Positions 3,501-10,755 of a stretch of 64,000 nt of DNA are shown here, piece by piece. Positions within the stretch are counted from its first letter, which is position 1. Each line of letters opens with the position of its first letter. The stretch lies in the IMG/VR virus record IMGVR_UViG_3300012667_000244, positions 34,326-98,325 of that record. One strand, 5' to 3'. The notes under the pieces are model-generated. The model searched no databases and was not told the DNA's origin. It saw nothing but the letters and a program-made list of their open reading frames with translations. The translations under genes were made by a program, and so were the position numbers. This DNA is from a virus. Its lineage: Duplodnaviria > Caudoviricetes.

Positions 3501-6500
3501 TAGCAACACTAACATACTCTAACGCATCGATTACTTCCGAGTCACCACCAATGTTATATAACGGACTTGGTTCAATTCTCAAGTACCCGTTAGCTTCTAC
3601 ACCGAATGTAATAATGTCATTAGGGATAACAGTTACACCGGTAGCAGTAGTTAATACAAGAGTGTACTGGCTTCCTGCATTTAGTGGAGGAGTTGGAGCA
3701 GTAATGCTTTCAATAGCAACTTCTCCCGCAATTCCTGATGCAGTTAATAGATCACCAATATCTAAGTCGCCAATTACAGTGTTAACTACTAGAGTGCGTG
3801 TGCCAGAAGTCCAACTTACTACAGTGCCTAGGGCAATGTATTTCGGTAATACATATTCTAGTACACGGTGGATACGACCGTTCCAACCAAACAAGTAAGT
3901 TCCCTTATTAATTTGGTCGATAGTTGATTGTTTGCTAACTGTAAGTACGGCAATTTTTGTGTCGCCTACTGTTGCACCCATAGTTGCTGTAGGATCATCT
4001 GGGTCTACATTTTCAATGTTTCGTACATCGGTTGCAAATTTGTAGTAAGAGAATGAACTATCTGATTGTAGAATTGAAACATTGTCTGGCAATGTTTCGC
4101 CTGTTGACTCAGCTAGGTTATAAGCTAAGATACGATAGATTTCAGATAAGTTTTCGCTGTACTGTAATGCAGTTGATGGACGAGTTGGGTTGACGTTAGC
4201 AATACCGTTAAACTTGACGTTCTGTAATGAGCGGATTGTTACTAGCTGTCCATGGTACAATTCAGTTGCAAGACCGGTGCTTGATGTACCGTTGTTACCA
4301 GCAGTACTCAAGTTTAGTTTAATAACATTGATGCCACCAACGAAAATAGTAGTATGTTCTATACTATTAATTTCGTAGCGGACAATACCTTGTCCTGTGT
4401 TAGTGTGATCAATTTCTAGTTCTGAAATACTAGTTGGGATATAATCGTAACCAATAATCCAAACACTTAATGCAGGCTTAGTAAGAGTTGGTGTCATCTC
4501 ACCGGCTGCACTACCTTGCTTGTAAACACGAGCAACTTGTGCTAGGTTGTTTGCTGTAGTTACTGCATCTGGGAGTTCAGTTACATCGTAACCTGAAGCT
4601 CGTAAGCCGTAGTTACCGTGTGCGTTCGAACCTGCAACAGAACGAATCTGTCCGCCGTCCGCTGCCCAGTAGTGAGTGTGACAATAGTATGTGAATGTTG
4701 AAACTTGTTCTGATACAGCACCGTTCTTTGCAACAATACCGTATCCTAAGTCGTTAATCATAGCAAAGTCGTTAGCAAGCATAGACTTGTTACCGCCCAT
4801 CTCGATGTTAATTGCTAATCCACCGCCGTTGTTTAGGAAGAAGATAGTGTCACTTTGAATGCTTGCTTTGGCTGCAATTACAGCCGCTCTTGCCGCTTCT
4901 AAGTCGTCGTCTTGTGATGCTAGGCTTGGCTCAACAGTAGCAACAGTTGCATCGTAGTCGCCGTCAGCAACATAATCAATTAGAATGTTACCTAGTGTAA
5001 CTAGTGTGCTTGCTTCTGTAGCGGATGCCGCTGGCAATGTATCGTTCTGAACTGTAAAGTTACCAGATGATCTAGTCACTGGAGTGTTTACAACTACTTC
5101 AGCCATTACATCTCTTAGTCGTCCATAAGCAGCCGCTGTAACTGCTTCTTCGCCAGTAATGTAGCTAGTTGCTCCACGATAGTATGCTTCTGCAACATTC
5201 TTAATTTGACTGTTACAATCGTATACCACATCATAGATCATTGCGTCAATGATGTAGCCTACATCTCGTGAACACTTGATACTGTCATATCCTGGAATGT
5301 TTTTAATAGTGTAGTTGGCCGCGATCCATGCAACAATTTCATCACGCAAGAATTGACGGTTAGCAACTAACACATCTCTAGCTTTTAGTTTGTTGTCGGT
5401 TGGACTCATACCAGTTCTTGCTGGATATACGATATCTGGAACTGCGCTAGCACCTTGTGTTAGAATAGTTACAATAGTATCAATATTCTCAGTCATTGCT
5501 AGTCGAGCTGCCGCATACTGCGCACCTGGAATTTCTGCAAGTGCAAGATCTCTCGCACTGTTGATACCGGCAATAGTTTGTACTAGTTGACGATTTGGAA
5601 CAGTGCTAGCATATGAACGAAGATACGACAAGCCTGCTTTGATACTTTGGTAGTTAGAACCTAGAACAGCATCGTAGCTAATTGCTTCAAGAATTAATCC
5701 AACATCTCGTGAGCACTTGTCGTTATCGTAGAATCCACCTGCATCATAAGGAGTAGATGTGTTCAATCTTAGAACAACAGTTGCAGTTCCGCTATCGTAG
5801 CTAACCACATCGTCAATTTGATAACGATTGCCTTGTACATAGAATGCACATGGTGGTTGAGGAGCACGGACGTCAAGACCACTGTTAGTATAACCTTGAA
5901 CTGTAATTTGTGTGCCGCTGTTAATAATGTTTCTTACTGGGATGCTAAATCCGCTACCAGTACCGCCAACATCTGCACTGTCAACTTTTACTAGTTCGCC
6001 GATGTTATAGTATGCTCCACCAGTCTTAACAATGGTGTTAGTAATGCTACCGTTCAATACAGTGATGTCAGCAGTAGCACCGTAACCGCCGATTGTTGCA
6101 GTCATTTCTCCCGTATCTGTTGTTAGTTCAACAGTTGCACCGCCGAGTGTACGAGCAATAGTAATAGTGTTAGTACCTTCATCAACTGTCTTGATGAAGT
6201 AATTTGAATCAGCAAGCACTCCGCCTAATACTGAACCGCTAAACACAACAGCACTGCCGCTAACCAATCCAGCAACTGAAATTAATTCAATAGTATTGTC
6301 GCCAGCAGTTGTATCAGTAGCACTGACACTAGTACCTTGTAGCGGAACATTGGTATATGTTAGAGAACCAGTTAACGGTGTGTATCCAGCACCGCCGATG
6401 ATCTCAGCTGAATCCAATCCTGATAGAGCATTGTACTCAACATCAATAATTGTTCCTCTTAGTCGACCAGTAAAGCCGTCAACAAACTGTCCACCAGCAA

Positions 6501-9500: not shown

Positions 9501-10755
9501 CTGCAATAGTAGAATTGTAAGTTGTTCCTAACAATAAGTCGTTAGCTACTGCATTTAAGATGTAACCAACATCTCGCTGACATTTAACACGGTCGTATGT
9601 AAATTCGTTAACATACTTGTTGTTAATGTAAGCAATCGTTTCAGCTTGAATGAATGACTTGTTTAAAGTTAATAAGTCGTAAGCATCTTGGTAGCCTTCA
9701 ACTTGAGTGTTACCGTCAACTAGGGTAACACTTTGCACTGTTGAGAAGAATTGATCAGGCCCAATAGTGTATGTTAAACGCTGTCTATAAGGTCCAGGCT
9801 CTTGGCTAGCAGTAGAAATTAAATTCTCTGCTGCCAACGCGGCTGCGCCAACACTGCGATATGCATACTGCCAGAAGCGGCCTTCTTTACCTACAGGAGT
9901 CTTTGTCTGTAAGTCGTCACCACTAGTAGCAACATATAAGTTTACACTACTTGAGAAGCTGTTATTGTCTACATAGAACTTGCTAGCTGCCTGCAAGTCA
10001 GCGGCACCGCCTGGAGTTCCAAAACCTTCTAACGGAGCTGGGTGATCATTTAGGTATAACTTACCAGTCATTCTATCACCACCGCGATATACAACGTCTT
10101 TACGCTGTACTGGCTCAGTAGACAAATAGTTACCAGTTAATGTTGAATCATATCCTTCTTCGCCAACTTGCGGTAGTACAGGTTCTGATCTAACTTCAAT
10201 AGGTAAATCAACACGGTATCCAATAATAGTAGTGGACAAGTCTTCGTTAACTTGGGTAATAGCTGTTGCTGACAAGTAGTTCTTATCAGCAAACCCTTTT
10301 GATACTGGCAGTTGGTCAATGCTGATTGATAGTCCAGTGTGGATTGATTCCCAGTAGCCTGCTAGTTCTGGGGTTGGGTCTGCAATAGGACCGATTGCAA
10401 GATTGTTAGTGTTAAGGGATGCACCTAGTGCAGGCTTAGGATCACTTACTAAACCAGCAACAGTTGACGAGATTGTTATCTTAGTAGGATTACTCTTGTT
10501 AATAGTAATGCCCGCGCCAGCTTCTAAGTCACGAGCCGCAAGTGCAGTTCCGCTAGTATTTGCTGTGATAAGTTGGTTAGCTGAATAGCTGTCAGGTGTG
10601 TCACTTAACGCTGTAAAATTAATAGTACCGTCGCCTACGCCGAATACCGCATAAATTTCATTAAAGTTATCATTGACTTTGCGGAACGATTCGCGAATAC
10701 TATCGCCTGTGCCGTCATTACCCTGAATACCAATATCAATTATTTGTTTTGCCAT
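535..10755 (-). CDS. Giant (3406 aa) virion structural protein: gp9/gp10-like N-terminus, interrupted beta-helix, phycobiliprotein-like CxRD repeats, C-terminal peptidase G2/intramolecular-chaperone-like domain
   Basis: N-term [35 protein letters not shown]; YVATSGDD and [15 protein letters not shown]...[12 protein letters not shown] beta-helix entry motifs; C-term ADLAEYY...RVAGVVS...GRCPVKVIG...IIGKALE; Thr/Gly/Ser-rich; upstream TAAATA. Confidence 0.85.
5090..9690 (-). repeat. Six protein-level repeats of about 100 aa with consensus Y-x3-(K)C-x-RD-x2-(Y)-x4-hxYD, plus one degenerate copy
   Basis: KCQRDVGY (~9575), TCKRDVQY (~8970), KCARDIEI (~8280), ICYRDLGY (~7780), KCSRDVGL (~5710), KCSRDVGY (~5270). 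The copy near 9350 keeps IDAICYDL but lacks CxRD. Confidence 0.9.

Follow-up and report, generated by a model that had tools for sequence, protein, structure and literature searches.

Elsewhere, phycobiliproteins serve cyanobacteria and algae as soluble antenna subunits, and the known paralogues are small bacterial proteins. In ApcE, the core-membrane linker, the bilin is attached without a separate lyase, and the attachment Cys is not at the Cys84 position. The BBAGs (bilin biosynthesis-associated globins) of heterotrophic bacteria, some of which carry a CXRD motif, bind bilins without lyases, and their genes are associated with those for haem oxygenase and bilin reductase (Rockwell et al., PMC10151467). 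Freshwater phages are known to encode active haem oxygenase and PcyA, with a benefit about which the authors "can only speculate" (PMC11480375). Here we describe a giant fibre gene, P0001, in the last 64 kb (positions 34,326 to 98,325, a stretch of 64,000 nucleotides hereafter called the window) of the 98,325-bp IMG/VR record IMGVR_UViG_3300012667_000244, from a virus of the Caudoviricetes. The product of this gene carries six repeats that, we are confident, share fold and homology with phycobiliproteins, members of the bilin-binding globin superfamily. A literature search, which did not cover most subscription journals, found no prior description of phycobiliprotein-like domains in phage structural proteins.

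A preliminary description of the window, made from its letters alone, had reported six C-x-R-D repeats in a giant, baseplate-linked protein in which Cys is scarce yet present in every intact repeat, and all of these points were borne out. The single open reading frame (ORF) at 535..10755 contains every repeat string quoted there and exactly six C-x-R-D motifs in 3406 residues, at Cys392, 594, 825, 990, 1681 and 1828 (codons at window positions 9580-82, 8974-76, 8281-83, 7786-88, 5713-15 and 5272-74, respectively). These account for six of the 20 Cys residues in the protein. Alignment of the six 111-aa cores revealed invariant Tyr36, Cys41, Arg43, Asp44, Asp55, Tyr71 and Thr87 (core numbering, used from here on). 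An N-terminus resembling T4 gp9/gp10 that scores above the Pfam cut-off, matches to tail-fibre PHROGs and a weak C-terminal likeness to a chaperone domain together identify the protein as a baseplate-attached fibre. Its features are as follows.

535..10755, minus strand: giant baseplate-attached fibre/virion protein gene (P0001), 3406 aa, a single ORF; PHROG tail-fibre families, E 1e-42 to 2e-50.
10435..10749, minus strand: N-terminal T4 gp9/gp10-like baseplate attachment domain, aa 3-107; PF07880, 30.9 bits (cut-off 25), E 3.5e-7.
9370..9702, minus strand: phycobiliprotein-like domain 1, aa 352-462, Cys392; domain profile 144.7 bits, top Pfam match PF00502 at E 0.007; Cys, Arg, Asp, Tyr and Thr intact.
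9178..9402, minus strand: partial seventh copy, aa 452-526, helices E-F only, without C-x-R-D; domain profile positions 35-89, E 2e-6.
8764..9096, minus strand: phycobiliprotein-like domain 2, aa 554-664, Cys594; domain profile 148.3 bits, site intact.
8056..8403, minus strand: phycobiliprotein-like domain 3, aa 785-900, Cys825, motif KCARD; domain profile 129.4 bits, site intact.
7570..7908, minus strand: phycobiliprotein-like domain 4, aa 950-1062, Cys990; AlphaFold2, Foldseek and VIA (see below), PF00502 at E 0.019.
5503..5841, minus strand: phycobiliprotein-like domain 5, aa 1639-1751, Cys1681; domain profile 122.3 bits, PF00502 at E 0.017.
5065..5400, minus strand: phycobiliprotein-like domain 6, aa 1786-1897, Cys1828; domain profile 134.4 bits, site intact.
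556..966, minus strand: C-terminal region, aa 3264-3400, tentatively likened to the self-cleaving intramolecular chaperones of fibres and spikes.

The assignment of the C-terminal region draws on PF11962 (Peptidase_G2), at 17 bits and below the cut-off of 25, and on phrog_22593 (E 6e-13, aa 3276-3400). The partial seventh copy was recovered too by a search of the phage's own record; it overlaps the end of the repeat 1 core, extends downstream and appears to be left over from an internal duplication of part of a domain. For aa 1100-1640 and 1900-2450, the stretches that separate and follow the domain clusters, phmmer found nothing in the PDB, and we make no claim of a beta-helix or lyase fold there.

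Sequence comparisons extended the likeness to phycobiliproteins beyond the tetrapeptide, as the preliminary description had held. PF00502 is the top Pfam match of the whole protein (18.9 bits) and also tops three of the six repeats when these are scanned singly (15.4-16.8 bits, E 0.007-0.02), in one register (profile positions 70-154), all at sub-threshold scores. A profile of the six cores matched 37 entries among all PDB sequences (E <= 1.1), 36 of which are phycocyanin, allophycocyanin or phycoerythrocyanin subunits, and the resulting alignments match the repeat Cys to Cys84 and the helix before it to helix B. We then used hhalign to compare a 137-row alignment of phage domains with 74 cpcA and 71 cpcB genes from cyanobacterial genomes, obtaining a probability of 90% against CpcA over a 25-column motif and of 89% (P ~2e-6) against CpcA and CpcB combined over 94 aligned columns (16-113 vs 38-143); reversed and column-shuffled controls gave at most 0.2%.

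Structure prediction led to the same family. We modelled repeat 4 (aa 940-1110, window 7426-7938) with AlphaFold2, template-free and from an alignment of phage domain copies only, which yielded seven helices with a pLDDT of 92.4 and a pTM of 0.89. A Foldseek search of this model against the PDB, a check suggested in the preliminary description, returned phycobiliproteins or their engineered derivative smURFP for all of the top 50 matches (TM 0.45-0.66, ~155 columns). A Foldseek-independent search (VIA) placed phycobiliprotein family members in all of the top seven positions (Z 12.0-14.0), led by far-red allophycocyanin (14.0), phycoerythrin (13.6) and the ApcE bilin domain (13.1), with three more phycobilisome core-membrane linker chains and one core chain at ranks 4-7 (12.0-12.6); globin-coupled sensors, photocobilins and RsbR came next. 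Among predicted viral structures in BFVD, those sharing the fold are segments of cyanophage tail proteins and uncultured phage proteins, and the ESM Atlas gave no usable match.

The unit that emerges has a conserved core of ~110 aa within a full length of up to ~170 aa and comprises helices A, B, E, F', F, G and H. It is missing the N-terminal X-Y hairpin, which forms the alpha-beta monomer: the model begins at the helix aligned to CpcA residue 38, and the VIA alignments begin at chain residues 20-49. In some proteins, units follow one another so closely, back to back at ~108 aa, that a hairpin would not fit. A three-copy complex prediction for repeat 4 scored 0.00, giving no verdict and no evidence either way on trimeric discs. 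A haem-globin reading was also considered and rejected, as no column holds a conserved His.

To examine selection on the site, we drew on 151 representative proteins and 69 IMG/VR loci, which yielded 1601 distinct domain copies, and clustered these copies at 50% identity with the tested columns masked, which gave 525 Cys-bearing and 81 Cys-less clusters. Cys41 is present in 91% of the copies. The Cys-bearing clusters retain Arg43 in 96%, Asp44 in 100%, Tyr71 in 99% and Thr87 in 88% of cases, compared with 41%, 59%, 68% and 43% of the Cys-less clusters (Fisher p 1e-18 to 1e-32); Asp55, Asn61, Gly59 and Tyr36, by contrast, are equally conserved with and without the Cys. Because these residues are kept or lost together while the fold residues stay constant, Cys, Arg, Asp, Tyr and Thr form one unit. 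Where column 41 is Phe, Tyr or Trp, the Arg and the Asp are mostly gone as well.

A second pattern concerns the thiol. Column 87, which is Thr in 91% of the 1463 Cys41 copies and Cys in three of them, is Cys in 27 of the 29 Ser41 copies. The 27 Ser41/Cys87 copies fall into 12 clusters, with 16 copies coming from 14 different representative proteins, and they retain Arg in 85%, Asp in 100% and Tyr or Phe71 in 100%. Counting both arrangements, 93% of copies have a thiol at the site, carried by helix E (Cys41) or by helix G (Cys87). In the hhalign register, Tyr71 corresponds to CpcA Tyr110 on helix F' and Thr87 to CpcA Tyr129 on helix G, and it is CpcA Tyr129 that, together with Asp87, hydrogen-bonds the alpha-chain phycocyanobilin (PMC12692400, Fig. 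3 legend). The exchange in 27 of 29 copies, at a column matching this bilin-bonding residue, therefore indicates that the thiol at the site is under selection. The site is thus most probably functional and thiol-requiring, and its conservation follows the pattern expected of a ligand site that has been retained. A disulfide, which the preliminary description had raised along with poor conservation of the Cys, was rejected: there is one conserved Cys per domain, the next Cys column (53) is filled in 8% of copies, and neither a second conserved Cys, which a disulfide inside one domain would need, nor a conserved His was found among the 1601 copies. The Ser41/Cys87 subclass offers a natural control for site-directed tests; its holders are P0011, P0040, P0052, P0074, P0078, P0080, P0090, P0095, P0114, P0119, P0123, P0140, P0148 and P0150 and several IMG/VR loci.

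The six-repeat profile defined a large family, matching 1399 representative proteins among 1.84 billion at E <= 0.001; the best 150 of the 1399 are 844-6382 aa long and carry up to 36 copies each, mostly spaced by 100-170 aa. Searching 50,697 phage records with the four-repeat region by tblastn gave 185 matches at E <= 0.001, every one from a cyanophage or marine single-cell virus and annotated as tail fibre, short tail fibre, gp7 or structural protein, while blastn of the fibre-domain region against the same records gave no match. Among cultured phages, the domain is confined to cyanophages, and none of the annotations of cyanophage domain proteins that we examined names a phycobiliprotein domain. 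The cyanophage P-HM2 (GU075905.1), for instance, has four copies in two giant ORFs, one of 4458 aa annotated as 'gp7 baseplate wedge initiator' and one of 3682 aa, with two copies per ORF forming domain pairs at 54718-57453 and 82985-83770.

The record itself belongs to a freshwater lineage with large genomes. CheckV estimates its completeness at 27%, from which we derive a genome of ~360 kb. The ligase encoded in the window is 69%, 62% and 55% identical to those of three uncultured relatives, G044, G033 and G043, compared with 36% for the best cultured-phage match, so the record can be assigned to the lineage of these three. The sequence is present in freshwater, lake and other aquatic metagenomes (at least five studies). 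We did not find psbA in the 98-kb record or in four relatives (74-259 kb), and the other genes of the record resemble genes of phages with varied hosts; neither observation shows or excludes a cyanobacterial host, and the non-cyanobacterial host proposed in the preliminary description is likewise neither favoured nor opposed by our results.

Relatives of this phage encode bilin synthesis. In G033 (259 kb), both genes of the pathway lie in one operon.

L152 4712-8752 (G033:C1:54711-58751): five-gene operon encoding DnaK (Hsp70), Hsp20, ClpS, haem oxygenase and ferredoxin-dependent bilin reductase.

By this arrangement, chaperones and bilin synthesis may be co-expressed in this relative. Relatives of the G033 reductase occur on more than 300 viral contigs, and the 79 listed besides G033 are 66-72% identical to it. 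Six of the reductase-bearing records, selected on that gene alone, reach 128 kb or more, and five of these six also encode giant proteins with the domains described here; none of 16 shorter reductase-bearing fragments does, as expected from their size. Haem oxygenase, reductase and domain occur together in G033, and reductase and domain in G043, G044, G046, G047 and G048, records in which haem oxygenase was not searched for. The G044 reductase gene is separated from the ligase gene by ~72 kb, on the opposite side from the fibre gene and tens of kb from the fibre genes, and the same layout would put a reductase beyond the end of our record.

Our analyses demonstrate that the repeats share the phycobiliprotein fold and are homologous to that family, that the site is under selection and that, across the lineage, the domain co-occurs with bilin genes. 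The structural part of the preliminary reading, namely the fold, the C-x-R-D register and the link to the baseplate, is upheld; for the ligand, we infer a bilin. The best single reading, one we put forward tentatively and at somewhat less than even odds, is that the site binds a linear tetrapyrrole covalently through its Cys. Phycobiliprotein-superfamily repeats would have been built into the baseplate-attached fibre of a ~360-kb freshwater phage, with Lys-Cys-x-Arg-Asp on helix E, Tyr on F' and Thr on G acting as one thiol-needing site. This site would take up a linear tetrapyrrole in the infected cell and bind it covalently via the Cys, and the fibre of the virion would come to carry the pigment. 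Supply could come from the host, or from a phage-encoded haem oxygenase and bilin reductase such as the relatives possess. Attachment might proceed without a lyase, as in ApcE and the BBAGs, and the bound pigment might have a role in light sensing or light-gated adsorption. A UV screen, as proposed in the preliminary description, is a conceivable role that our results neither favour nor oppose.

Several observations weigh against this proposal. Every PF00502 score is below the curated gathering threshold of 22.2 bits, and the richer 137-row profile brought no gain against the PDB (phycocyanin at E 0.026), matching an unrelated coiled-coil adhesin fragment at E 0.024 as well. Haem oxygenase, bilin reductase, CpeT and CpeS were not found in the whole 98-kb record, extending to the full record the absence of haem oxygenase, bilin reductase and lyase genes that had been noted for the window; this says little, because the record is ~27% of a genome and relatives carry the haem oxygenase-bilin reductase pair. 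A CpeT-type lyase was not found in five relatives (70-259 kb) either. P-SSM2 has a bilin reductase without the domain, so phage bilin genes need no such acceptor, and the co-occurrence of reductase and domain comes from one phage lineage, with few independent events. We know of no report of coloured cyanophage particles, although no exhaustive search for one was made. Finally, the coupled loss and the exchange of Cys/Thr for Ser/Cys could arise if helices E and G met in a buried contact.

This last point belongs to an alternative that is possible, if rather unlikely, in which the domain is a structural module only: a rigid helical spacer or bead derived from phycobiliproteins, its Cys-Arg-Asp-Tyr-Thr cluster a buried polar and packing network of helices E, F' and G that would steady the fold, with no chromophore. 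Building blocks would be expected to form arrays like these, which reach 36 copies and in some cases follow one another directly at ~108 aa; Asp55 and the Gly-Gly-Asn turn persist whether or not the site is intact, and the Cys-less copies with a bulky Phe, Tyr or Trp may simply have repacked their core; the lack of a lyase or bilin gene in the 98-kb record and the reductase of P-SSM2 would also be accommodated. However, Arg86 and Asp87 serve the bilin in phycobiliproteins, yet their counterparts are 96-100% kept across hundreds of clusters less than 50% identical. A packing contact would be expected to accept Ser/Thr or Ala/Thr pairs, whereas 93% of copies hold one thiol, at column 41 or 87; a helix-helix contact is disfavoured as the origin of the exchange because it would not explain why exactly one Cys is retained. 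The domain, moreover, occurs only in phages of bilin-making hosts or in lineages that encode bilin synthesis.

A functional site with a different ligand or chemistry, such as a metal ion, a redox-sensitive thiol or a host surface molecule bound in receptor recognition, appears improbable to us. Joint selection and the need for a thiol do not name a ligand, a fibre usually serves in host binding, and no lyase was found in the record or in the five relatives searched. Nevertheless, the retained residues are the ones whose phycobiliprotein counterparts hold the bilin, and their register is unchanged; a metal or haem site would have neither a conserved His nor a second conserved Cys to draw on; and receptor-binding sites usually vary, whereas this site is nearly invariant over the 1601 copies. 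A chance or convergent resemblance, in which an unrelated helical bundle happens to contain C-x-R-D, could draw on the sub-threshold Pfam scores and on the middling structural Z-scores that helical folds often yield, but it can be set aside as extremely improbable given three repeats matching PF00502 independently in the same register, 36 of 37 PDB sequence matches to phycobiliproteins, hhalign probabilities of 89-90% against control values of at most 0.2%, and two independent structural methods whose top matches are all phycobiliproteins and span the whole domain.

The published behaviour of cyanophages in the dark is relevant here. Adsorption of P-HM1 and P-HM2 fails in the dark; P-SSM2 still adsorbs then, though less than in light, and adsorption of P-SSP7 is not stimulated by light (Liu et al., PMC6628666). 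The light-dependent adsorption of S-PM2 is independent of host photosynthesis, for which the authors suggest light-sensitive receptors or tail fibres (PMC6628666). We found the domain in S-PM2, P-HM1 and P-HM2 and no copies in P-SSM2 and P-SSP7. With five phages, two of them close relatives, this correspondence between domain presence and dark adsorption is a lead and not a test. A more specific proposal, that the fibre is a virion-borne bilin photoreceptor in which absorbed light gates adsorption, with the bilin made by phage haem oxygenase and reductase or by the host, is speculative and we consider it a long shot. If true, it would explain both the bilin synthesis encoded by phages of non-photosynthetic or unidentified hosts and the light-only adsorption of S-PM2, P-HM1 and P-HM2 as against P-SSM2 and P-SSP7.

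More broadly, fibre arrays carrying bilin would, if real, place a light-absorbing cofactor on a virus particle. Two questions become testable: what purpose phage haem oxygenase and bilin reductase have where light harvesting is unlikely (PMC11480375), and what makes the adsorption of some cyanophages strictly light-dependent without involving host photosynthesis (PMC6628666).

The surroundings of the fibre gene contain other features. Directly downstream, a gene at 2-535 (minus strand) overlaps the fibre stop by one base, runs off the window and has no Pfam or PHROG match. On the other side, a UvdE UV-damage endonuclease gene (11495-12505, minus strand, E 5.6e-40) lies 740 bp from the fibre gene, agreeing with the uvsE gene placed within 1 kb by the preliminary description, and is followed by genes for a PTPS/QueD-like protein (13468-14046, minus strand) and an ATP-dependent DNA ligase (22820-24136, minus strand). 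No functional link of UvdE, the PTPS/QueD-like protein or the ligase to the fibre was found. At least eight radical-SAM genes are present in ~37 kb, an unusually high density for a phage (19378-20766, 32447-33418, 34013-35104, 35007-36125, 37003-38265, 39084-40574, 43595-44644 and 55161-56243), along with a tryptophan-halogenase-like gene at 50973-52580 (phrog_2928, E 1.6e-89); the radical-SAM and halogenase-like genes might modify a peptide, glycan or cofactor.

Comparison with known systems defines what is shared and what is particular to the phage domains. With the phycobiliproteins of PF00502 (CpcA/B, ApcA/B and CpeA/B), the repeats share the globin-like fold of helices A, B, E, F', F, G and H, the Lys-Cys-x-Arg-Asp-[Ile/Val]-Gly-Tyr segment on helix E in the register of Cys84/Arg86/Asp87, which is nearest to the alpha-phycocyanin motif, the Gly-Gly turn after helix E and the conserved Asn of helix B. 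Unlike phycobiliproteins, whose light-harvesting subunits pair through the X-Y hairpin, the phage repeats lack this hairpin, are reduced to a core of ~110 aa, score below the Pfam cut-off and have invariant Asp55, Tyr71 and Thr87 of their own; they also occur as 6-36 tandem copies in giant virion proteins, whereas phycobiliproteins are free alpha and beta subunits. Among the structural matches, the tightest is that to the bilin-binding domain of ApcE (4XXI; 18% identity, with 118 residues superposed at an rmsd of 2.2 Å and Z 13.1), likewise a phycobiliprotein-like domain embedded in a large multidomain protein, although ApcE combines one such domain with linker repeats and sits in the phycobilisome core. 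The BBAGs, which we compared by their published description, are like the phage domains in being phycobiliprotein paralogues outside cyanobacteria, some with CXRD, and photocobilin structures match the repeat 4 model at Z 10.1-10.5; however, BBAGs are small stand-alone cellular proteins encoded beside bilin genes, while the phage domains are part of a virion protein encoded far from the haem oxygenase-reductase pair. The giant tail-fibre/baseplate proteins of T4-like cyanophages (P-HM2 'gp7', S-PM2, S-WAM2 and S-CAM1, for example) resemble the present fibre both in the type of protein and in the domain family that it contains, and BFVD models of their segments reach TM 0.65-0.84 to the repeat 4 model. 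Identity is only 23-37%, and those cyanophages have genomes of 170-250 kb, as against ~360 kb for the freshwater lineage to which this fibre belongs.

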